DNA of 64,000 nucleotides. Origin: Candidatus Roseilinea sp. (lineage in GTDB: Bacteria; Chloroflexota; Anaerolineae; J036; Brachytrichaceae). The translations under genes and the position numbers were made by a program. The notes under the pieces were generated by a model. It did not search any database. It saw nothing but the letters and a program-made list of their open reading frames with translations, and was not told the origin of the DNA. The stretch covers positions 43,630 through 107,629 of the forward strand of contig JANWYN010000068.1 in the NCBI GenBank assembly GCA_025055235.1, written 5' to 3'. This document shows, piece by piece, positions 149 to 60,604 of this stretch (position 1 is the stretch's first letter; each line of letters starts with the position of its first letter).

Positions 149-1639
149 TCACCGCAGATCCTCTTCGACGCACTTCGCCGCCGCGATGCCTGACAGCGTG
201 ACCAGCGGCACGCCGCCGCCCGGATGCGCGCTGCCGCTGGCGAAGTAGAGCCGGCCGATTTCGCCATCTCGGTTGCCCGGCCGCATGAACGCTGCCATGC
301 GCGTGTTCGACGAGAAGCCGTAGATCGCGCCGCGGTGGCCGCCATAGGTCGCCTGCAAGTCCCACGGCGTCAGCCGGCGCTCCACCTGCACCAGCGACGT
401 CGCGTTCTCCAGCGGGCACACGCGTCCGATATTCGCCACCAGCAACCCCTTGATGTGCTGCGCGTAACGCTCGGCTTCTATCTGCCAGTCGTAGGCCTCG
501 CTTAGGTAAGGCGCGTTGATGAGCACGAACCAATTCTCGCAGCCCGGCGGCGCGTGATCGGGGTCGGTTTTGCTGGTAATGCACACATAGAGCGTGGGAT
601 CACGCGGCGCGATGCGACGGACGAAGATATCGTCGAACTCGCGCTGATAGTCCTGCGTGAAGAAGATGTTGTGATGCGCTAGCGGGTCATGCACGCCGCG
701 CACGCCCAGAAGAAGCACGAACCCGCTGCACGACGGCTCGAGCTTACCATTACCTGCGCGCGGACGGGTGCCATCTACAATCAACGTCTCGCGCGCCCAG
801 GTGTAATCCACGTTGCACACTACGGCATCGGCGTGGATGACCTCGCCGCTGGTCAGACGGACGCCACATGCCCTGCCGGACGCGATGCAGATCTCCTGCG
901 CCGGGCTGTTGTAGCGTATCTCCACTCCCAGCTCGGTCGCCAACCGCTCCCACGCCCGCGCGAGCTGAAAGATGCCGCCGCGTGGATACCATGCCCCCTG
1001 CGCCATTTCGACGTAAGCGATCACGTTCAGCGTGGCCGGCGCGCGGTAGGGCGATGAGCCGTTGTAGGTAGCGAAGCGGTCGAAGAGTTGCACGAGGTGC
1101 GGGTCTTTGAAGTGCGCGCTGATGGCCTGGTGCATCGTGCGCAACGCGTCAATCTTGAACACGTCGGCCAGCGGGAGCGAGGCCAGGTCGCGCAGGGTGG
1201 GTTTTTGCCGGTAGAGGAAGGGGCCGCTGACCACGTCGTAGAGGCGCTTGGCGTAGCGCATGAAGCGGCGATAACCGTCCACGTCACGCGGGCCGAAGGC
1301 GCGCCGGATGTTCTCGCACATGGTCGCCTCATCGGCCACGGCGTCAATCGTCGCGCCGTCGCGCCAAAAGTAGCGCGTGATTGGCTGCAGCGGGACGAGG
1401 TCGAGGTAGTCATCCAGGTCGCGACCGGCTTCGGCGAACAGCCCTTCGTACACGTGCCGCATGGTGATGACCGAGGGGCCGGTGTCCCAGCGGAATCCAT
1501 CGGCGCGCACCTCACCCATCTTGCCGCCGGGGCGATCGAGCTTTTCGACGACCGTGACCCGGTAGCCGCGCGATGCCAGCCGGATGGCTGCGCTCAGCCC
1601 GCCGATGCCGGCGCCGACGACGATGACGCGCGCGCTCAT
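149..1639 (-). CDS. FAD-dependent oxidoreductase of the phytoene desaturase family (CrtI/CrtD-like). The start is trimmed to the ATG giving MSARVIVVGAGIGGLS.
   Basis: N-terminal Rossmann GxGxxG motif (VVGAGIGGLSAA). Whole length resembles carotenoid desaturases. The ORF-track upstream extension is Arg/His-rich junk. The ATG overlaps the smc stop (ATGA). Confidence 0.8.
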   Translation of the reverse strand: MSARVIVVGAGIGGLSAAIRLASRGYRVTVVEKLDRPGGKMGEVRADGFRWDTGPSVITMRHVYEGLFAEAGRDLDDYLDLVPLQPITRYFWRDGATIDAVADEATMCENIRRAFGPRDVDGYRRFMRYAKRLYDVVSGPFLYRQKPTLRDLASLPLADVFKIDALRTMHQAISAHFKDPHLVQLFDRFATYNGSSPYRAPATLNVIAYVEMAQGAWYPRGGIFQLARAWERLATELGVEIRYNSPAQEICIASGRACGVRLTSGEVIHADAVVCNVDYTWARETLIVDGTRPRAGNGKLEPSCSGFVLLLGVRGVHDPLAHHNIFFTQDYQREFDDIFVRRIAPRDPTLYVCITSKTDPDHAPPGCENWFVLINAPYLSEAYDWQIEAERYAQHIKGLLVANIGRVCPLENATSLVQVERRLTPWDLQATYGGHRGAIYGFSSNTRMAAFMRPGNRDGEIGRLYFASGSAHPGGGVPLVTLSGIAAAKCVEEDLR

Positions 1640-4600
1640 CTGCGGTGGCCGTCGGCGAGCTTCACTTCGTCCAGCCGCAGGCTCAGCGCAGTGCTCGCGC
1701 CGTCCGCGCCCATGCTGATGCCGTAGATCGTCGTCGCTGCCTCCACCGTGCGCCGGTTGTGGGTGATGATGATGAACTGTGTGCTGTCGCTCAAGCTCTC
1801 CAGCATCGCGCGGAAGCGCCCGACGTTCGACTCGTCCAGCGCCGCATCCACCTCGTCCAGCACGCAGAACGGCGTCGGCTTCACCTGCAGGATGGCGAAC
1901 AAGAGCGCCGTCGCTGTGAGCGAGCGCTCGCCGCCGGAGAGCAGCGCTAGCGACTGCGGGCGCTTGCCGGGCGGCTGGGCGTGAATCTCCACGCCGCACT
2001 CGTCAATGTTGTCCGGGTTGATGAGCGAAAGCCGCGCCTGGCCACCGCCGAACAACACCTTAAACGTGCTCTGAAAGGCGGCGGCGATGGCGTCAAACGT
2101 TTGGCGGAAGGTGTCCTTCATCACGTCGTTCAGCTCGGCGATCACCTGGCGCAGCGCCGCCGAAGCCTTCTCCAAGTCGTCGCATTGCTCGGTGATGAAG
2201 CGGTGTCGCTCGCTCAGTGCCTCGAACTCGGCTTGCGCCTCGTAGTTGATCGCGCCCAGGCGTTTGATCTGCCCGCGCAACTGGGCGATGCGCTCTTCGA
2301 CGCCGGCGGGCAGCGCTTCGACGAGGGGCAGTGCCTCCAGGAGTGGAGATCGGAGATTGGGGATTAGAGATTGGTCTTCAGACGCCGCACTCGCATTCGC
2401 GGAGCCGTCACCGGCTTTCTCGATTCTCAATTCGTCATTCTCAATTTCAACCAGGGCGCGCTGGCGCAAGTTCTCCAGCTCATCGTTGTGCCGCGCCAGC
2501 TCCAACGTGATGGCGTTCAGGTGAGATTCGCGCTCGCGTAGCACTCGCTCGGCTTCGCGCCGGCGCTCGTCCAGCTCGCCGAGCTGCGCCTCGACGGCAG
2601 CAATCTCGTTTTGCAGCGGCGCGATCTCCGCGTCGGCTTCGCGCCAGGCAGCCTCCGCCTGAGCGGCAGCGTCCGCCATCTGTTGCAGCGTCGCCTGAGC
2701 TGCCTGCAGTTGCGCCGTCCATTCGGCCAGGCGCTGTGCGCGCAGTTCGCGCTGCGCCAACGCGTTGGCGTGCGCTGCGGCGCGCTCACGGCTGAGCGCC
2801 TCGGCATTCTGCATCGCGCCCAGCGCAGCCGAGAGCATCGCCTGCGCGGCGGTGAGCGGCTCCAGCCAACCGCTCTGGAGCTGCTCGCTCAAGCGGGCGT
2901 CGAGTTCGCGCAGCGCCTGCTGCGCTTGCGCGTGTGCTTCCTCGCGCTGGGCCAACGCGTCGCCGGCTTCCGCGAGTTGCCGGCCGAGCGACTCGATCTC
3001 TTCGGTCAGGCGCTCCATATCGCCGGCCAGCGCAGCCAGAGATTCTTCGAGCAGGTTGATCTTGCGCTGCGCAGCCTCGACGCGGTTGCGCCGGTTAGCG
3101 CTTTCGCGGTTGAAGATGTCGCGCGCTTGGGTCGCCTGTTCTAGCACATGTCGCGCGACCTCGAACTCGCGCTGCGCCGCATCGCGGTGCTGCCGGGCGC
3201 GTTCGAGGTTGGCCAGCACGGTTTCGTAATCCGGCGCTTCCACAAGATCGGTCTCTGCGCCCAGGATGATGGGGGAGCGCGCGCCTGCCGGCAGTGACAA
3301 CGCGCCGGTAGCGTGCGCCACTTCGCCGTCGCGCGTCACGCACAAGCAGCCATCGGGCAACTGTGCCGCCAACGCGCGCGCGGCGTCCAGGTCGCGCGCG
3401 ATGAACTTGCGCCCGGCGATGATGAGCATGGCCGGCTTCAGCCATTCAGGCGCGCTAATTGCGTCGAGCAGTGGGCGGGCGTGGTGCGCCCAGGCGTGCT
3501 CGTTTAGGATGCGGTCATTCGCCTCGCGCTCGTCGTCGAAGGCGCGCAGGGCATGCGTCATCACCACGGCGATTCGTCCGGATGCCTGCTCGGTGAGCCA
3601 GGCGCGCAGGCGCGTGAGGCCGGCCTCGCTTGCCTCCGGCGCGCTGGGGGCGATGACGACGGCGTTGAGCAACTCGCCCAGCGCCGCTTCGACGGCCTTC
3701 TGGTCGTCGGGGGCGATCTGGATGAAGGACGACAGCACGCCGCGCACGCTGGGCAGCTCAGCCCGCGCTGCTGCGGCCGCGAGCTCGTCCGCGCTGCGGG
3801 CGGCCAGCGCGCGCATGTCGGCGAAGAGCGTCATGCGCGAAGTCAAACGCTCCTCTGCCTCCGCCGCAGCCAAAGCAGATTGCGCCTGCTCCAACGATGC
3901 GCGCGCCGATTCGAGCGTTTGCACCGCCGACTCATACTGCGCTTCGAACAGGTTTATCTGCGACGCCTCGCGTTCCATCGCTGCGTTCATCTCGTTCAGC
4001 GTCGCCAGCTCAGCCTCACGCTGCGCGCCGAGGTCGGCTGCTCGCCTGGACATAGCATCGAGCTGCTGCCGTAACGCGTCTTGACGAGCGCGCAGGCCGG
4101 CGATGTGGTTGCGCGCTGCCAGCACGGCGTCGCCGGCCTCGGCCAGGCGCTGCTGAGCTTCGGCGCGCTGTTGCTCCAGCGTTGTGCGCTCGTTGCGTCG
4201 CTCGGACGCGGCCAGCTCCGCCGATTCGACTTCGCGCTGGCGCTCGAGATAGGCGGCCTGCGCCAGCGCAAAAGCAACCTGAGCTTCGTTGGCACGCGCG
4301 GCGAGCGCCTCGATCGCCGCAGCGGATTCGTCCAGCTCGCGTTGCGCATCTGCCACTTGTCGTTCCATCGCCGCGACCCGCTCACGCATGACGGCCAGAT
4401 CGCGCGATGCGGCTTCAGCGGCCTGGCGCGCGGCGTCGCGGCGAGGTTGTGCCTCGGCCAGGCGCGCCTGCAGCGACCGGCGCGCTTCGCGCAGCGCCCC
4501 GCCGCGTTCGTCCAGCGCATTGACTGTTTCCAGCGCCTCGGCGACGGCTTGCTGGGCGTCGCGTTGCGCAGCGGCAGCCGCTTCGATGGCGGATTGGACG

Positions 4601-5307
4601 CGCCGGTAGTGGTAGCCCAGCCACACGCGCGTGAGCTGGTTCAGCTCGTCGGCCAACAGACGATACTGGCGCGCGCGCTCGGCCTGTCGTTCGAGCTGCT
4701 TCAGGCGCGGCGTGATTTCGTTGAGGATGTCGCGGGCGCGTTCCAGATTGTGGTTGGTCTCTTCCAACTTGCGCAGGGCGTCTTCGCGCCGATCGCGATA
4801 GCCGGCGATGCCGGCGGCTTCTTCGAACAACGCGCGGCGCTCCTCCGGCTTTTGCGCCAGCGCCTCGTCCACCAAGCCCTGGCCGATCACCGTGTAGGTG
4901 CGTTCAGCCAGGCCGCTATGAGCAAGCAGGTCGGTCACATCGCGCAGGCGCACGCGGTTGCCGTTCAGCACGTATTCGTTGGCGCCGTCGCGGTAGGCGC
5001 GCCGGCCGATCTCGATCTCGCTGAACTCGATGGGGAAGAAGCCGTCGCTGTTGTCGAAGGTGAGGATGACTTCGGCCATGCTGGCGCGCGGCCGGCGAGC
5101 GCTGCCGGAGAAGATCATGTCGTCGGTCTTCTTGCCGCGCAGCAAGGAGAACTGCTGCTCGCCGAGCGCCCAGCGGATGCCGTCGGCGATGTTGCTCTTG
5201 CCGCTGCCGTTGGGCCCGATGATGCAGGTGATGCCTTCGCCGAACTCGAAGCGCGTCTTGCTGGCGAAGGTTTTGTAGCCGTTGAGCGTGAGTGTCTTCA
5301 GGCGCAT
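1636..5307 (-). CDS. smc: Chromosome segregation protein SMC.
   Basis: Walker A GPNGSGKSN, long coiled coils, signature LSGGERSLTA and Walker B VLDEVDAALD at the C-terminus. The probable start is MRLKTLTLNGYKTF (M8 of the track ORF). Confidence 0.9.
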   Translation of the reverse strand: MRLKTLTLNGYKTFASKTRFEFGEGITCIIGPNGSGKSNIADGIRWALGEQQFSLLRGKKTDDMIFSGSARRPRASMAEVILTFDNSDGFFPIEFSEIEIGRRAYRDGANEYVLNGNRVRLRDVTDLLAHSGLAERTYTVIGQGLVDEALAQKPEERRALFEEAAGIAGYRDRREDALRKLEETNHNLERARDILNEITPRLKQLERQAERARQYRLLADELNQLTRVWLGYHYRRVQSAIEAAAAAQRDAQQAVAEALETVNALDERGGALREARRSLQARLAEAQPRRDAARQAAEAASRDLAVMRERVAAMERQVADAQRELDESAAAIEALAARANEAQVAFALAQAAYLERQREVESAELAASERRNERTTLEQQRAEAQQRLAEAGDAVLAARNHIAGLRARQDALRQQLDAMSRRAADLGAQREAELATLNEMNAAMEREASQINLFEAQYESAVQTLESARASLEQAQSALAAAEAEERLTSRMTLFADMRALAARSADELAAAAARAELPSVRGVLSSFIQIAPDDQKAVEAALGELLNAVVIAPSAPEASEAGLTRLRAWLTEQASGRIAVVMTHALRAFDDEREANDRILNEHAWAHHARPLLDAISAPEWLKPAMLIIAGRKFIARDLDAARALAAQLPDGCLCVTRDGEVAHATGALSLPAGARSPIILGAETDLVEAPDYETVLANLERARQHRDAAQREFEVARHVLEQATQARDIFNRESANRRNRVEAAQRKINLLEESLAALAGDMERLTEEIESLGRQLAEAGDALAQREEAHAQAQQALRELDARLSEQLQSGWLEPLTAAQAMLSAALGAMQNAEALSRERAAAHANALAQRELRAQRLAEWTAQLQAAQATLQQMADAAAQAEAAWREADAEIAPLQNEIAAVEAQLGELDERRREAERVLRERESHLNAITLELARHNDELENLRQRALVEIENDELRIEKAGDGSANASAASEDQSLIPNLRSPLLEALPLVEALPAGVEERIAQLRGQIKRLGAINYEAQAEFEALSERHRFITEQCDDLEKASAALRQVIAELNDVMKDTFRQTFDAIAAAFQSTFKVLFGGGQARLSLINPDNIDECGVEIHAQPPGKRPQSLALLSGGERSLTATALLFAILQVKPTPFCVLDEVDAALDESNVGRFRAMLESLSDSTQFIIITHNRRTVEAATTIYGISMGADGASTALSLRLDEVKLADGHRR
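2341..2378. repeat. Heptamer tandem repeat (GGAGATT-like, about 5 units) inside the smc coding region.
   Basis: Reads ggagatc ggagatt ggggatt agagatt. It encodes a low-complexity insert (…SEDQSLIPNLRSPLLEALPLVEALPAG…) in the SMC coiled coil. Confidence 0.6.
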
Positions 5308-5392
5308 CGCGGGGTTGATTCTAACCACACCTGGTCGAGCTGGTCTTGAAACTTTCGAGAGGGCAAGGAGTCAAGAATTTAGGAAGTCTGCA

Positions 5393-7180: not shown

Positions 7181-7200
7181 GAGAAGGCGGAAGGCAGAGA

Positions 7201-7291
7201 TCAGAGGTCAGAAGTCAGAATTCAGAATCCAGAGTCCAGAACTCAAAACTCACGGCTCACGGCTCACGGCTCACAGCTCACAGCTCACCCC
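7201..7291. repeat. Heptanucleotide tandem-repeat tract, about 13 units (TCAGARN x7 grading into TCACRGC x6).
   Basis: Reads tcagagg tcagaag tcagaat tcagaat ccagagt ccagaac tcaaaac tcacggc x3 tcacagc x2 tcacccc. It abuts the stop codon of the 7285 regulator. Confidence 0.85.
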
Positions 7292-12549: not shown

Positions 12550-12597
12550 ACGTCTTGCGTCCTTCGTCTTGCATCTTGTGTCTGCGTCTTACGTCTT
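12550..12597. repeat. Heptamer tandem repeat RCGTCTT (about 7 units) in a divergent intergenic region.
   Basis: Reads acgtctt gcgtcct tcgtctt gcatctt gtgtct gcgtctt acgtctt. It shares the string GCGTCTTACGTC with the array at 21286-21348. Confidence 0.8.
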
Positions 12598-12644
12598 GCG
12601 CATGACGCACTTTTGGCATTATCATCTGAGCTGCGGTGAGATAG

Positions 12645-13417
12645 ATGGCTTTCACGGTCAGCGACTTCAACGATCTGGTGCAGTTGTTGAACGCCCACCC
12701 AGAGTGGCGCGGCGAGCTGCGCCGCCTCGTGCTTAGTATGACATTCTTGAACTACCTAGGGTCGTTCATGAACTTGCCGAGGCGCAGAAGCGCACCGAGG
12801 TGCGGGTGGAAGAGCTTGCCGAGGCGCAGAAGCGCACCGAGGCGCGGGTGGACGAGCTGGCGCGCCGGATGGATGAGTTGGCGAAGCAAATGAGCGAGCT
12901 GGCCGCCGCGCAAGCAGAGATGCTTCGCGAGCAGCGGCTGATGCGCCAACAATTGGGCAGCCTCTCTAAGGACATGGCCGGCGTGAAAGGCATCGTCCTG
13001 GAACTTCGGTATCGCACCCGTGCGCACGCCTACTTCGGCACGCGCTACCGCAACCTGCGCGTAATCGAGCCATCTAACTTGGACAAGGTCGAGCAAGCGT
13101 ATGAGGCCGGCCAGTTCACCGAATGCGAATGGCGCAATCTGAATAAGATTGATGTGTTGATGCGTGGCACGACCGGCGTCGGCCCCAGCAAACGAGAAGA
13201 ACTGCTGGCGCTCGAAGTGTTGTGGATCATTGATGCCAGTGACATCGAACGCGCCAACGAGCGCGCTGATATTCTTCGCCGGCTTGGATACCCCGTGCAA
13301 GCCGCTGTGGGAGGGCACGATATTCTCGAAAGCGCCAAGAACCGTGCAAAGGAGCTGAACGTCCTTGTCGCGCTCGATGGAACCTTGGACAAGGACGAGG
13401 GTGAGGCATCGAACTGA
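12645..13417 (+). CDS. Hypothetical coiled-coil protein. There is an apparent +1/-1 frameshift between an N-terminal segment (12645-~12770, MAFTVSDFNDLVQLLNAHPEWRGELRRLVLS…) and the main frame (12800-13417).
   Basis: Two ORFs in different frames abut at a 42-bp x2 tandem repeat (LAEAQKRTEVRVEE / LAEAQKRTEARVDE). The downstream frame has no ATG, only a GTG inside the repeat. The C-terminal part (…LEVLWIIDASDIERANERADILRRLGYP…) is globular. Confidence 0.4.
12773..12856 (+). repeat. 42-bp direct tandem repeat (2 near-identical units) encoding a coiled-coil heptad segment.
   Basis: cttgccgaggcgcagaagcgcaccgagg(t/c)gcgggtgga(a/c)gag occurs twice in tandem. Confidence 0.85.
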
Positions 13418-14301
13418 TGATCATCCTCGACGGCGCGATGGGCACGGAGCTGACCCGGCGCGGCGTGGATACGACGCTGCCACTGTGGTCGGCCATCGCG
13501 CTCGACGCCGCGCCGGACGTCGTCGTGCAAATTCACCGCGATTACCTCGACGCCGGTGCACAGGTCATCACCACGAACACCTTCCGCACTAACGTGCGCG
13601 CACTGGCTAAAGCCGGTATCGCCCATCGCGCACGCGAGCTGACCTTTCGGGCGGTCGAGCTGGCGCGACAAGCTGTGGCTCAATGGCGACAGGGACAAGG
13701 GGACAGGGAGACAAGGGGACGAGGAGACCTGCCCCCTGTCCGAGTCGCCGGTAGCGTCGCCCCGGTTGAGGATTGCTACTCGCCGGAGCTTGTCCCCAGC
13801 GATGCCGAGTTAGCCGAGGAGCACGCCATCCTCGCGCGCAACCTGGCCGATGCCGGCGTAGATCTGATGCTGGTCGAGACGCAGAATACGATTCGTGAGG
13901 CCGTCGCCGCGGCGCGTGCTGCCCACGCCACCGGCAAACCGTTGTGGGTGAGCTTCACGCTGGACGATGAGAATCGGCTGCTGAGCGGCGAGTCGCTGCA
14001 CGACGCCGTTCGCGCCGTGCTGCCGTTCGAGCCACAGGCCGTCCTGGTCAACTGCATCCCGGTCAAACAAGTTGCCTCGGCACTGAAGCTGCTGCGCAGC
14101 GCGGCGCCGCCTCACGTCGCCATCGGCGCATATGGCAACGCCGGCCATGTGGACGAGGTGGTCGGCTGGACGTTGACGAACGCAGTTTTGCCGGAAGCGT
14201 ATGCCGAAGCAACGCGCGAATGGCGCGCCCTGGGCGCGACGATCATCGGCGGCTGTTGCGGCACCACGCCGGAGCACATTCGTGCCATCGCTGCCTGCTG
14301 A
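13417..14301 (+). CDS. mmuM: Homocysteine S-methyltransferase (MmuM/YbgG family).
   Basis: MIILDGAMGTEL…ITTNTF…LVNCIPV…IIGGCCGTTPEHIRAI are classic S-methyl_trans (PF02574) blocks. It contains an in-frame low-complexity insert (QGQGDRETRGRGDLPP) encoded by GGGGACA heptamer repeats. Confidence 0.8.
   Translation: MIILDGAMGTELTRRGVDTTLPLWSAIALDAAPDVVVQIHRDYLDAGAQVITTNTFRTNVRALAKAGIAHRARELTFRAVELARQAVAQWRQGQGDRETRGRGDLPPVRVAGSVAPVEDCYSPELVPSDAELAEEHAILARNLADAGVDLMLVETQNTIREAVAAARAAHATGKPLWVSFTLDDENRLLSGESLHDAVRAVLPFEPQAVLVNCIPVKQVASALKLLRSAAPPHVAIGAYGNAGHVDEVVGWTLTNAVLPEAYAEATREWRALGATIIGGCCGTTPEHIRAIAAC
13686..13745. repeat. Heptamer tandem repeat GGGGACA (about 5 units) followed by an inverted copy (ccccctgtcc), inside mmuM.
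   Basis: Reads gcgacag ggacaag gggacag ggagaca aggggac gaggaga cctgccccctgtcc. The same GGGGACAG/CTGTCCCC unit recurs at 57095-57182. Confidence 0.75.
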
Positions 14302-57076: not shown

Positions 57077-57094
57077 ACAGCGCAGGCATGGACC

Positions 57095-57182
57095 GGGGAT
57101 CAGGTGACGGGGACAGCATCCAGCTCATCTCAACCCTGACCCCTGACCCCCGATCCCTGACCCCTGTCTCCTGATCCCTGAC
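57095..57182. repeat. Heptamer repeat element: an inverted arm (ggggatcaggtgacggggacag) followed by about 7 tandem CCCTGAC units ending 1 nt before the rbfA ATG.
   Basis: Reads ccctgac ccctgac ccccgat ccctgac ccctgtc tcctgat ccctgac. The upstream arm is partly reverse-complementary (GTCAGGG/CCCTGAC, GGGGACAG/CTGTCCCC). Confidence 0.8.
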
Positions 57183-57183
57183 C

Positions 57184-57552
57184 ATGAGCAAGAAGTACGA
57201 GAAGCGCGTCAACGAACTCATCCGCATGCATCTGGCCGAGTTGTTGGAACGTGAGTTGAACGACCCGCGCGTGAACGGCGCGCAGGTGACGATCACCGAT
57301 GTGGAGGTCACGCCCGACGTGCGCCACGCGAAGGTGTTCTACAGCCTGATCGGCGACGAAGCGCAAAAGGCCGAGGTCGCGCGTGGGTTGGAGAGCGCCG
57401 CCGGCTGGCTCAGCCGCGAGCTGGGCAAGCGCCTGCGCACGCGCCACACGCCGCAGTTAACGTTTGAATTCGACGAGTCGTTCGAGCGCGGCGACCGCCT
57501 GTCGCGGCTGCTGGACGAGTTGAGGGGCGACGAGGAGATACGAGCGTCTTAA
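57184..57552 (+). CDS. rbfA: Ribosome-binding factor A.
   Basis: RVNELIRMHLAELLEREL.DPR…VTITDVEVTPDVRHAKVFYS is the RbfA KH-like domain signature. Confidence 0.85.
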   Translation: MSKKYEKRVNELIRMHLAELLERELNDPRVNGAQVTITDVEVTPDVRHAKVFYSLIGDEAQKAEVARGLESAAGWLSRELGKRLRTRHTPQLTFEFDESFERGDRLSRLLDELRGDEEIRAS

Positions 57553-58553: not shown

Positions 58554-59555
58554 ATGCTCGCGCTGCTTGCCCAGATCGCCCCACAACGCAGCACACAATA
58601 CAGCGCGCTCGCCAGCGCACTAGCGCCGCACGAGCTGCAACTGAGCGTCCTCCGTGAGCGAATCGCTTCGCTCAGCGCAGTGGAACTGGGCGGGCAGCCC
58701 TATCTGAAATGCGAGCTGTCTGCTCCGCCGACCGATGCGGATCTTGGCGAGCTGGGTATGTTCGCGACGATGAGTGCGTTCTTCGAGTATGCCGAACGCC
58801 TGGGCGAGCGCGATGGGCCGTGGCTGCGGCCCATCGAGACGCGCTTCCGGCCGGCCTTCCCGCCGGAATTGGCCGCCGCCCGGCGCTACAAGGGCAAGAC
58901 CAACGAGTTGTTCACGCATTTCATGTGCAACGTGGCGCGCTTCAGCAGCGCATTCGCCGGTTTGCCGTGGCGCGCGTTGCGCGTGTTCGACCCGCTGGCC
59001 GGCGGCGGGACGACGCTCTTCACGGCGCTCGTCCTCGGCGCAGAAGCGGCGGGGGTGGAGAGGTGCAGAGAAGACGTTGAATCTACGGTGGCCTTCTTGG
59101 CGCAATACGCCCGCGAGCAAGGCATCGCGCATACAGTGAAAGAAGAACGATTGAAGCAATTCGGCCGGCGCTGGCGATTCACGTTCGCAGCGGAAGGATT
59201 GCCGGCGCAGTGCGTGCTGGCGCGCGGCGAGACGGCGCACGCGGCGGCATTGATGGACGGCGTCAAACGTCCGCACTTGATCGTCGCCGATTTGCCCTAC
59301 GGCATCCGGCATCGCGGGGAGCTGGCCGAGCTGTTGGAAGCGGGGCTGCCGGTGTGGTCGGCGATGCTCCTCGAAGGCGGCGCGCTGGTGTTCGCCTGGG
59401 AGTCGGCCCGTTTCCCGCGCGCGGAGATGATCGGGCTAGTCGAGTCGTGCAGCGGACTGCACGTGTTGAACGAGCCGCCGTATGACCGGCTGGCGCATCG
59501 CGTAGACCGCGTCATCAAGCAACGCGATGTGATCGTGGCGCGGAAGGCGCCGTAG
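58554..59555 (+). CDS. Putative SAM-dependent (RNA) methyltransferase with a DPPY-like motif DLPYG.
   Basis: Motif I VFDPLAGGGTTLFTALVLG, motif IV LIVADLPYGIRH. An N-terminal non-catalytic domain. Confidence 0.5.
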   Translation: MLALLAQIAPQRSTQYSALASALAPHELQLSVLRERIASLSAVELGGQPYLKCELSAPPTDADLGELGMFATMSAFFEYAERLGERDGPWLRPIETRFRPAFPPELAAARRYKGKTNELFTHFMCNVARFSSAFAGLPWRALRVFDPLAGGGTTLFTALVLGAEAAGVERCREDVESTVAFLAQYAREQGIAHTVKEERLKQFGRRWRFTFAAEGLPAQCVLARGETAHAAALMDGVKRPHLIVADLPYGIRHRGELAELLEAGLPVWSAMLLEGGALVFAWESARFPRAEMIGLVESCSGLHVLNEPPYDRLAHRVDRVIKQRDVIVARKAP

Positions 59556-59566
59556 TTAGGTGCGCG

Positions 59567-60604
59567 ATGGACGGCCTGTTGATCGTTGACAAGCCGCGCG
59601 GGATGGCGTCGCACGATGTGGTGGCGCGCGCGCGCCGGCTGTTGCGCGAGAAGCGCATCGGCCACGCCGGCACGCTCGACCCGCTGGCGACCGGCGTGCT
59701 GGTGCTGTGCATCGGCCAGGCCACCCGCCTGAGCGAATACTTGCTTGGCGAAGACAAGGCCTATGCCGGCGTGATCCGGCTGGGCCAGCGCACGACGACC
59801 GACGACGCCGAGGGCGAGGTGATCGCAACGCGCCCCGTGCCGCCGCTGACCGAGGAGACGCTGAGGCAGCTCGAAGCGCGCTTCACCGGCACAATCGCGC
59901 AAACGCCGCCGCAGTTCTCTGCCATTCAAAAGGGCGGCCAGCGCGCCTATGCCCTGGCTCGTCAAGGCCGGCCGGTCGAGCTGGCGCCGCGGCAGGTGAC
60001 GGTGTATGAGCTGCGGCTCGCGCTGCCCGGCAGCGATGATTCAAGATTGATGACTGATGATTTCCCACCCCCCACTCCCGATTCCCCAATCATTCAATCA
60101 TCAATCATCCAATCATCAATCATTCACCATCAATCATCGGGAGCCGGGAGTGGGGAGTCGGTAGTCGGCCATCTGTGCCTCTTCGTCCGCTGCTCCGCCG
60201 GCACCTACGTTCGCGCTCTGGCGCGCGACATCGGCGAGGCGCTCGGTTGTGGCGGCCATCTGGTTGCGCTGCGCCGCATGCAGGCCGGCCGCTTCACGCT
60301 GGCCGATGCCGTCACGCTCGATCAGGTCGAAGCCGCAGTGCGCGAGGGCAAAGCTGCATCGTTGTTGCTGCCGATGGACCGCGCGGTGGCCGATTGGCCC
60401 GCAGTGCATTTGAGCGACGCCGACGCGCGGCGGTTGAAGATGGGACAAGCGATTGCGTTGCCACAGCCGGTCGCTCTCCCAAGCGCAGCTCGCGGGGTGC
60501 GCGTGTATGATTCTCGCCGTACGTTCATTGCCATCGCGCACTGGGATGGAACGAAACTCAAACCGGCGAAGGTCTTCGATGCAGCTCCTCCACTCGTTCG
60601 ATGA
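59567..60604 (+). CDS. truB: tRNA pseudouridine(55) synthase TruB carrying an about 45-aa low-complexity insertion.
   Basis: LLIVDKPRGMASHDVVARARRLL…GHAGTLDPLATGVLVLCIG and the catalytic Asp motif. Insertion SDDSRLMTDDFPPPTPDSPIIQSSIIQSSIIHHQSSGAGSGESVVG between the conserved blocks VYELRLALPG and HLCLFVRCSAGTYVRALARDIG. Confidence 0.85.
   Translation: MDGLLIVDKPRGMASHDVVARARRLLREKRIGHAGTLDPLATGVLVLCIGQATRLSEYLLGEDKAYAGVIRLGQRTTTDDAEGEVIATRPVPPLTEETLRQLEARFTGTIAQTPPQFSAIQKGGQRAYALARQGRPVELAPRQVTVYELRLALPGSDDSRLMTDDFPPPTPDSPIIQSSIIQSSIIHHQSSGAGSGESVVGHLCLFVRCSAGTYVRALARDIGEALGCGGHLVALRRMQAGRFTLADAVTLDQVEAAVREGKAASLLLPMDRAVADWPAVHLSDADARRLKMGQAIALPQPVALPSAARGVRVYDSRRTFIAIAHWDGTKLKPAKVFDAAPPLVR
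60069..60165. repeat. Heptamer repeat element inside truB: an inverted arm (cccactcccgattcccc), about 7 units of CAATCAT, then about 4 units of CGGGAGT (complement of the arm).
   Basis: Reads aatcatt caatcat caatcat ccaatcat caatcat tcaccat caatcat cgggagc cgggagt ggggagt cggtagt. The whole insert is about 135 bp (in frame). Confidence 0.8.

Follow-up and report, generated by a model that had tools for sequence, protein, structure and literature searches.

Tandem repeats with a unit of seven nucleotides (nt) form an over-represented class of long simple sequence repeats (SSRs) in many bacteria, for which polymerase slippage has been proposed (Mrazek et al. 2007, as presented in passages of PMC4679880 and PMC4692102). 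Here we describe such repeats in 64,000 nt of a Candidatus Roseilinea sp. genome (Chloroflexota, Anaerolineae; contig JANWYN010000068.1). This whole stretch is called the window below. The main subject is a low-complexity insert of 46 amino acids (aa) encoded within its truB gene. It is likely that this insert grew as heptamer arrays by slippage and template switching at a hairpin tip that tolerates them, that translation filtered the products, and that the resulting loop is nearly neutral.

Cyanobacteria provide some of the closest described systems. Short tandemly repeated repetitive (STRR) heptanucleotide arrays occur within the gene for RNase P RNA in heterocyst-forming cyanobacteria, going by the title of Vioque 1997 as cited in PMC2858038, and Calothrix heptanucleotides are mentioned in a passage of PMC4692102. 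The window shares with STRR sequences the tandem 7-nt units, several unrelated units per genome, their concatenation and their mostly intergenic position; this likeness is one of architecture. In the rnpB case attributed to Vioque in 1997, the arrays reportedly sit in a hairpin at the structural periphery of a functional, conserved gene. The window differs in phylum (Chloroflexota), in its G+C content (0.64), apparently in its units, and in arranging arrays as inverted pairs. Unlike rnpB, truB codes for protein; its arrays pass through three reading phases, and stop and frame constraints shape them.

Other bacteria carry heptanucleotide SSRs with related properties. In Xanthomonas and Nostoc, GGGNATC repeats fold into G-quadruplexes, and inverted arrangements able to form stem-loops occur in Xanthomonas (both in passages of PMC4692102). 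TAACTGA repeats of Beggiatoaceae are occasionally found within open reading frames (ORFs), at the protein periphery, according to a passage of PMC4679880. As parts of PMC4679880 and PMC4692102 have it, heptanucleotide SSRs are under-represented within coding sequence, and units that are not a multiple of 3 are rare in ORFs. In the window, the complement of one truB array (B', below) is a GGGNATC-like G-quadruplex motif. In contrast to the prokaryotic heptanucleotide SSRs, three of the seven window loci are in frame in conserved genes and one position is a clade-wide hot spot. The truB insert belongs to the heptanucleotide-repeat class; what is new is the phylum, the location in a protein-coding gene and the hot-spot behaviour. 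No report linking heptanucleotide repeats with Chloroflexota was found in the literature searched.

Palindromic elements are a second kind of relative. Rickettsia palindromic elements (RPE) are inserted in frame into protein-coding genes, with 44 cases in R. conorii according to a passage of PMC10969869. The truB insert resembles RPE in outcome: about 100-150 nt of palindromic DNA lies in frame and yields a peptide of about 45 aa that is compatible with the fold of an unrelated housekeeping protein. It lacks the dispersed copies of RPE families: RPE form dispersed, conserved families, whereas no second copy of the truB insert occurs in the available data; the insert is built of heptamers and includes codons of the host loop. 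The small dispersed repeats (SDR) of Nostoc, linked to the name of Elhai et al. 2008, are said to be very small hairpin-forming elements, often with heptameric tandem repeats, nested and sometimes in conserved genes. What reportedly defines SDR is their occurrence as dispersed, nearly identical copies; no such copies of the truB units were found in the window or in 91 loci. On SDR, PMC3116915 cites Elhai et al. 2008. Finally, quasi-palindrome correction by intrastrand template switching is an established mutational mechanism in E. coli. Template switching creates an inverted copy of nearby sequence and perfects hairpin arms. Array B' as an inverted form of array B, and the perfect stems in three relatives (L087, L088 and L090, below), are reminiscent of this process, which is usually described for single mutations of a few bases and not for a compound of 100 nt.

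Anatomy and translation of the insert

The insert lies between VYELRLALPG and HLCLFVRCSAGTYVRALARDIG in the truB ORF. The original prediction had claimed an in-frame, low-complexity, repeat-encoded insertion, and the exact peptide that it quoted is present in the ORF at 59567-60604. Its position of 60037-60172 (136 nt, about 45 aa) was shifted by a few bases from the one measured here. CAATCAT in about seven copies and CGGGAGT in about four, with inverted arms, had likewise been recognized; a fourth array (A', 60035-60062) had been missed. The features of the gene and of the insert are as follows.

59567-60604, plus strand: truB coding sequence, 345 aa, tRNA pseudouridine-55 synthase (Pfam, PDB matches, AlphaFold2)
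60032-60169, plus strand: 46-aa low-complexity peptide SDDSRLMTDD...GESVVG (S156-G201), 138 nt, a multiple of 3
60035-60062, plus strand: array A', GATGATT CAAGATT GATGACT GATGATT, encoding DDSRLMTDD; inverted complement of array A
60063-60086, plus strand: array B', TCCCACC CCCCACT CCCGATT CCC; apparent inverted copy of the start of the ancestral loop, AATCGGGAGTGGGG
60087-60138, plus strand: array A, CAATCAT in 7.1 copies, encoding IIQSSIIQSSIIHHQSS (Tandem Repeats Finder)
60139-60173, plus strand: array B, GGGAGCC GGGAGTG GGGAGTC GGTAGTC GGCCATC (Tandem Repeats Finder, orthologue alignment)

Each array holds at least three copies of its unit: 7.1 of CAATCAT, 4.6 of TCGGGAG (60137-60168, Tandem Repeats Finder score 43), four in A' and 3.4 in B'. 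Tandem Repeats Finder describes array A at period 7 with 80% matches (score 65) and better at period 15, with 3.5 copies and 89% matches (score 81). In A, units of 7 nt take turns with units of 8 nt and so build up an in-frame superunit of 15 nt. A' was recognized from inverted repeats I2 and I7-I11 and from minus-strand matches to (CAATCAT)3, and B' from inverted repeats I1, I3, I4 and I6 and the minus-strand match ATCGGGAGTGGGGGGTGGG. The arrays abut in the order A' B' A B, and their pairings cross, A' with A and B' with B. Arms at 60059-60086 and 60139-60166 (I3) are 28 nt long and 79% complementary. G+C is 0.47 across the insert compared with about 0.70 around it. In the self-match scan (criterion 23 of 28; control, 100 triplet shuffles of the window), arrays are found in the window at periods 7, 14 and 15 only, none is found in the shuffles, and the unit-pattern matches expected from the shuffles number 0.00-0.01.

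The same compound A' B' A B is present in L001, the locus of a 92%-identical orthologue in an independent Logan assembly (SRR28863565). Therefore the insert is no assembly artefact, a possibility that was rejected on this ground; it is real and heritable. Compared with the insert of the window, that of L001 has 12 substitutions and lacks one in-frame 15-nt (7+8) unit of A. This indel is the sole length difference between the two truB genes, and this one comparison is where copy-number variation between strains is seen. The codon changes are seven nonsynonymous and five synonymous in the insert and 17 and 34, respectively, in the rest of the gene, which, small as the counts are, suggests relaxed constraint on the insert.

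Every insert among 117 homologues is in frame and free of stop codons. In all three phases, units A, B and B' are free of stop triplets. A pure (GATGATT)n array, in contrast, necessarily places TGA in frame; a pure A' would have in-frame TGAs at 60041-60043 and 60044-60046. The window reads TCA AGA there, and these two codons fall in the single strongly deviant unit of A', CAAGATT for GATGATT. The deviant unit thus removes exactly both in-frame TGAs, which argues that the insert is read by ribosomes; LMTDDFPPPTPDSPIIQSSIIQSSIIHHQSSGAGSGESVVGHLCLFVR is among the peptides that it would yield. A frame filter acting on slippage would leave just such a 7+8 period in A and such an indel of 15 nt relative to L001.

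These observations bear on the idea that the segment is absent from the mature protein, as an intervening sequence, intein or translational bypass, or that it is a frame-shifting switch for phase variation or an artefact of assembly. A hairpin in coding sequence superficially resembles bypass elements, and a 7-nt unit is not a multiple of 3. But the frame is kept, free of stops, in the 117 homologues, the deviant A' unit has removed the TGAs, and a switch is opposed both by the in-frame superperiod of 15 nt and by the sole observed indel of 15 nt. These explanations together have next to no probability. An intein or intron was rejected separately: an intein would need far more than 46 aa, and the insert matched no intron or other RNA family. 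A phase-variable locus was rejected on the 80% matches at period 7, the in-frame 15-nt period and the frame-keeping indel (two genomes). In annotation, such segments should not be taken for frameshifts, introns or contamination.

The insert could also matter as a nucleic acid. The RNA of the insert region is predicted to fold at -50.7 kcal/mol (z -2.66) into a long B'/B stem, which is extended by A'-B contacts and leaves array A as a 53-nt loop; the insert of L001 folds with z -2.58. In addition, the minus strand, which is the template strand of truB, has a canonical G-quadruplex motif, GGGGAATCGGGAGTGGGGGGTGGG (60064-60087), belonging to the GGGNATC type of repeat. The window holds three such canonical motifs in all. 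A hairpin, of RNA or of DNA and including the template-strand G-quadruplex, might thus be under selection for mRNA processing or stability, or as a pause element, in the infB-rbfA-truB-ribF operon. L087, L088 and L090 have diverged deeply and yet have near-perfect stems, and similar hairpin arrays lie in the spacer upstream of rbfA; both would fit such a function. The substitutions do not: between the window and L001, four of six altered B'/B stem pairs are broken, including one that is altered on both sides, and there is no compensatory change. The inserts of L003, L004 and L005 show no excess structure, L002 and L006 have no insert at all, and no Rfam family matches the insert. A selected hairpin is thus very unlikely. 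Sub-threshold Rfam matches to models of eukaryotic miRNA hairpins were rejected as generic hairpin matches.

Position in the TruB protein

The ORF at 59567-60604 encodes a bona fide TruB with an intact core. Its product matches TruB_N (PF01509, 165.9 bits; cut-off 27.3), TruB_C_2 (PF16198, 63.1 bits; cut-off 29.3) and TruB-C_2 (PUA; PF09157, 34 bits; cut-off 21) in Pfam. The solved TruB structures of M. tuberculosis, E. coli and T. maritima match with E values of 1e-55 to 1e-40, the PDB entries 1sgv, 1r3f and 1k8w at about 1e-54. They align in two blocks, residues ~2-151 and then from ~203 onward. Between the blocks, E. coli TruB has about 8 residues and window TruB about 52. The catalytic Asp in the GHxGTLDP motif and the active-site His, Tyr and Arg are present, and D38, H33, Y66, Y214, R216 and K9 are invariant in 116 homologues, window TruB included. 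By alignment, we take D38, H33, Y66, Y214 and R216 to correspond to E. coli D48, H43, Y76, Y179 and R181.

An AlphaFold2 model of window TruB built with 116 homologues has a mean predicted local distance difference test (pLDDT) score of 88 and a predicted template modelling (pTM) score of 0.85. It bears out the TruB fold: the top Foldseek match is 1k8w_A (E 1.7e-33), E. coli TruB bound to RNA, on which the model superposes with a template modelling (TM) score, normalized by target, of 0.86. Two strands assigned by DSSP in the model enclose the insert.

59990-60022, plus strand: codons of beta-strand 142-152, the first strand of the hairpin (DSSP on the AlphaFold2 model, pLDDT >90)
60167-60193, plus strand: codons of beta-strand 201-209, the second strand of the hairpin, leading toward the GTYVR active-site motif (DSSP, AlphaFold2)

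In the model, the insert sits at the tip of a catalytic-domain beta-hairpin and falls between the Pfam domains TruB_N and TruB_C_2. The loop had been expected between the catalytic and PUA domains, which the model contradicts. The expectation of a short surface loop in other TruB proteins is borne out by the turn of about 8 residues in E. coli and by the low AlphaFold2 confidence of the insert. pLDDT is 47-62 over residues ~153-200, compared with >90 in the core, and the insert is predicted to be disordered. Nine residues of the second strand separate the insert from the GTYVR motif; judging by strand length, the tip would be roughly 30 Å from the catalytic centre. Although truB is conserved, it had been called essential too readily: in E. 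coli it is not, going by the title under which PMC11214086 cites Gutgsell et al. 2000.

truB is part of an operon with the order infB-rbfA-(nrnA-like)-truB-ribF. The syntenic loci L001-L006 contain IF-2, RBFA, DHH/DHHA1, TruB, FAD_syn and RecF-like genes whose lengths equal those of the window ORFs. The identical protein is recorded as TruB of an 'Anaerolineae bacterium' metagenome-assembled genome (MAG), and the nearest named relatives are TruB proteins from Ca. Roseilinea, Thermoflexales and Ca. Brachytrichaceae MAGs. Between truB and the DHH/DHHA1 (nrnA-like) gene is a 333-aa ORF without Pfam match (58554-59555, plus strand). This ORF is found in L001, L006, L087, L088, L090 and L091 and not in L002, L003 and L004; the L091 orthologue has a faint match to N6_N4_Mtase only.

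History of the site in relatives

Two orthologues with 75-76% identity, L006 and L002 (Ca. Roseilinea AP024676.1), have a short loop and no insert. Their site reads ...GAA ATC GGG AGT GGA GAG TCG GCA GTC AGC CAC..., and the window has GGG AGT GGG GAG TCG GTA GTC GGC CAT at the same codons and in the same frame. So from 60146 on, array B is not inserted DNA but the ancestral loop (GSGESVVGH). The extent of the insertion given by the original prediction accordingly needs trimming: 'GSGESVVG' on the right is ancestral. The lineage-specific part is about 60020-60145, a gain of about 38 codons. Beyond the ancestral loop, B has a single further 7-nt unit (60139-60145). CCCCACTCCCGAT in B' is the reverse complement of ATCGGGAGTGGGG, an arrangement without this extra unit. 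The host's own loop thus seems to have been copied into B' in inverted form before the duplication in B took place, since B' mirrors the arrangement that lacks the extra unit.

A homologue of arm A' is found in L001, L087, L004, L008, L003 and L005, and in many relatives the A' homologues encode a motif of the DDxRxxTDD type. In L087, whose TruB is 61% identical, A' is directly followed by its complement in a perfect 16-bp stem, GACTGATGACTGATGA ... TCATCAGTCATCAGTC, after which comes a shared ...TCAC(C)ATCAATCATC... segment that encodes HQSS. With A' next to its complement in L087, the simplest ancestral state would be a hairpin of A' with A, inside whose apical part the window lineage carries B' and the expanded A. 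Sister lineages have other hairpins at the same codons: L088 has a (GACGATG)3/(CATCGTC)2 hairpin, and L090 has a 19-bp outer palindrome around an inner one that is also present in L091. In the inserts of L003, L004 and L005, the excess folding has been lost (z +0.6 to +0.9).

The segment from VYELRL to FVRCSAGTY is 9-54 aa long in the 117 homologues, with a mode of 10 and the window as the longest. It exceeds 12 aa in 54 of the 55 closest homologues and in 29 of the 62 more distant ones. By this comparison, the hairpin tip of TruB is hypervariable across the whole clade. The single 'repeat element' that had been proposed is therefore better described as the current state of a lineage-wide hypervariable site, in a genome with many heptamer arrays. 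No close relative has a homologous, non-repetitive segment of the same length. Taken across relatives, the site runs in a natural series from a turn of 10 aa to a loop of 54 aa. The series shows repeats with a unit that is not a multiple of 3 being reshaped by translation (stop purging, 7+8 superperiod), inverted copies arising from host codons, and decay of inserts. A scan of genome contigs with TruB returned mostly distant Proteobacteria and Actinobacteria, the close relatives being L007 and L008 only.

The recurring motif raises the possibility of an adaptive protein loop, such as an acidic DDxRxxTDD patch that contacts a partner or tRNA. A motif like DD...TDD is present in 16 expanded loops, including those of a distant clade (~50% identity), and both differences of A' from L087 are synonymous. 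The motif, though, is what a stop-purged (GATGAYN)4 array yields in the truB frame. The loop is also hypervariable in length and sequence and has low model confidence, its ratio of nonsynonymous to synonymous changes is above that of the rest of the gene, and the nearest insert-free orthologues (75-76% identity) manage without it. There is accordingly little chance that the peptide was selected for a role of its own.

Heptamer arrays elsewhere and the origin of the insert

The truB insert is one of seven array loci in the window, four of which are intergenic and three in frame in conserved genes. The loci were placed by Pfam and a gene map based on G+C at third codon positions. The other six are as follows.

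2344-2374 and 2417-2450, minus strand: two arrays (GGAGATT-type and TTCTCAA-type) in frame in the SMC gene at 1636-5328 (Tandem Repeats Finder, Pfam)
13692-13728, plus strand: GGGACAAG-type (7/8-nt) array in frame in the homocysteine S-methyltransferase gene at 13417-14301 (Tandem Repeats Finder, Pfam)
7182-7288, no strand assigned: intergenic, about 15 phased heptamers (NNNNTCA), with the unit drifting along the array
12551-12600, no strand assigned: intergenic, CGTCTTG array just upstream of a start codon
21293-21344, no strand assigned: intergenic, CGTCGTG/CGTCTTG array with the unit of 12551, upstream of a start codon
57090-57183, plus strand: intergenic, inverted arrays, GTCAGGG-type and CCCTGAC in seven copies, filling the spacer upstream of rbfA

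Inverted partners and significant folding are found at some of these loci and not at others. The homocysteine S-methyltransferase array and its downstream inverted partner CCCCCTGTCC form a hairpin (13680-13765, z -2.5), and the arrays upstream of rbfA also fold (57077-57190, z -2.5). The SMC region has no excess RNA structure (z +1.0). The two SMC arrays flank a short spacer within the coiled coil and encode ...VEIENDELRIEKAGDGSANASAASEDQSLIPNLRSPLLE...; QGQGDRETRGRGD, encoded by the homocysteine S-methyltransferase array, lies in a loop for which the solved homologue 5dml has about 8 residues fewer.

Arrays are also found in the relatives L001, L002, L009 and L012, and loci of Chloroflexaceae and Oscillochloris have other units. 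L001 shares the CCCTGAC array upstream of rbfA. The infB-rbfA spacer of L002 has another unit, TCAGAAG/CAGAAAT in 10 copies (1435-1505), and TCAGAAG is the unit of a non-homologous site in the window (7182-7245). Either array positions are conserved while their units turn over, or units spread between loci. L012, from an Oscillochloris MAG, contains ATTGTAG in 4.6 copies and its complement CAATCTA in 4.6 copies (2126-2157 and 2273-2304, about 115 nt apart), and therefore inverted heptamer arrays occur in Chloroflexales too. A third array in L012, of ATTGCAG, lies just upstream of truB. Heptanucleotide arrays, hitherto discussed mainly for cyanobacteria, Xanthomonas and Beggiatoaceae and mostly as intergenic sequence, thus pervade a lineage of Anaerolineae-class Chloroflexota, where they enter conserved housekeeping genes in frame.

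One unit at non-homologous loci of different genomes is what a mobile element would leave. A small mobile palindromic element, of the RPE or SDR type or a miniature inverted-repeat transposable element (MITE), might have been inserted in frame, possibly repeatedly or in a nested manner, with the truB site as a preferred target. The architecture is palindromic and nested, the insert is in frame, forms a hairpin and lies at the protein surface, unrelated hairpin families occupy the same truB codons in sister lineages, and A' is 25/27 identical in the 61%-identical orthologue L087. Rickettsia is known to have palindromic insertions of about 150 bp that keep the frame, as stated in a passage of PMC10969869. 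Dispersed family copies, by contrast, were not found. The truB units have no second copy within the 64-kb window (up to 3 mismatches) or in 91 loci. The insert peptide is in no other protein in an exhaustive HMMER search of 1.84 billion representatives, which returned two spurious repetitive proteins only; a word-indexed search with the peptide yielded nothing at all, its parent protein included. Neither the A'/B' junction GATTGATGACTGATGAYTTCCCAC nor the A' arm GATGATTCAAGAYTGATGACTGATGA had any metagenome match, in a scan that also missed L087, a locus from a JGI sample that has GATGATTCAAGAYTGATGACTGATGA. No terminal inverted repeat with a target-site duplication is visible, at boundaries blurred by divergence; in the alignment with empty-site orthologues, the duplicated CGGGAGC/CGGGAGT units adjoin each other and do not flank the insert. 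Arm B is the host's ancestral loop and B' an inverted copy of it, and the length change relative to the nearest relative is an internal slip of 15 nt. On balance, a mobile origin is unlikely.

Growth in place by slippage and template switching, which we favour, would proceed as follows. Arrays would grow and shrink by replication slippage, and inverted copies would arise through intrastrand template switching at quasi-palindromes. B' would have copied an L006-like arrangement, ATCGGGAGTGG, before B gained its extra unit. New material would be added mainly inside the apical loop of the existing A'/A hairpin, which would give a nested or crossing architecture. Translation would then filter the products, so that only net changes of a multiple of 3 and stop-free units survive; the 7+8 superperiod of A and the deviant A' unit would be found because of this filter. 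The hairpin tip would tolerate almost any peptide, and the product would be a near-neutral, floppy surface loop without a required function of its own. No new mechanism or new TruB function is revealed by this account.

Several points weigh against growth in place. Slippage and template switching are read from the anatomy of the arrays, and translation is likewise deduced. A' is 25/27 identical between the window and L087, though the genes are 68.6% identical at the nucleotide level, and the arms have decayed in relatives closer than L087, which pure neutral drift does not predict. Given this identity, active hairpins may be homogenised. The unrelated hairpin families at the same codons in sister lineages, and TCAGAAG at non-homologous sites in different genomes, fit repeated insertion as well. 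The search for unit copies covered 64 kb of the source genome, and copies may be dispersed beyond it.

A bolder reading makes inverted heptamer-array hairpins a self-renewing class of elements of filamentous Chloroflexota that would time and again settle at, or persist in, particular tolerant codons, with the tip of TruB as a clade-wide 'nest'; we regard this as rather unlikely, if conceivable. It would be similarly doubtful, as part of that reading, that the arms are kept near-perfect by concerted evolution or re-templating and that nested growth takes place in the hairpin's own apical loop. If true, it would require a dedicated generating activity, as yet undescribed, beyond plain polymerase slippage.

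Two minor observations concern repeats near gene starts. A 42-nt unit is present twice, at 95% identity, at 12773-12858 (Tandem Repeats Finder score 158), near the start of a plus-strand ORF, where it would yield an in-frame duplication of 14 aa. Heptamer arrays upstream of genes also inflate predicted N-termini in annotation. The predicted N-terminal extensions of TruB in the homologues P0025, P0028, P0073 and P0076 (A1 columns 1-26) resemble translated heptamer arrays, for example SSIVNHPIVNR, LNLQSPISILQSQI and HAIFNPKSAIEN, and are probably due to mis-called start codons upstream of the true start.

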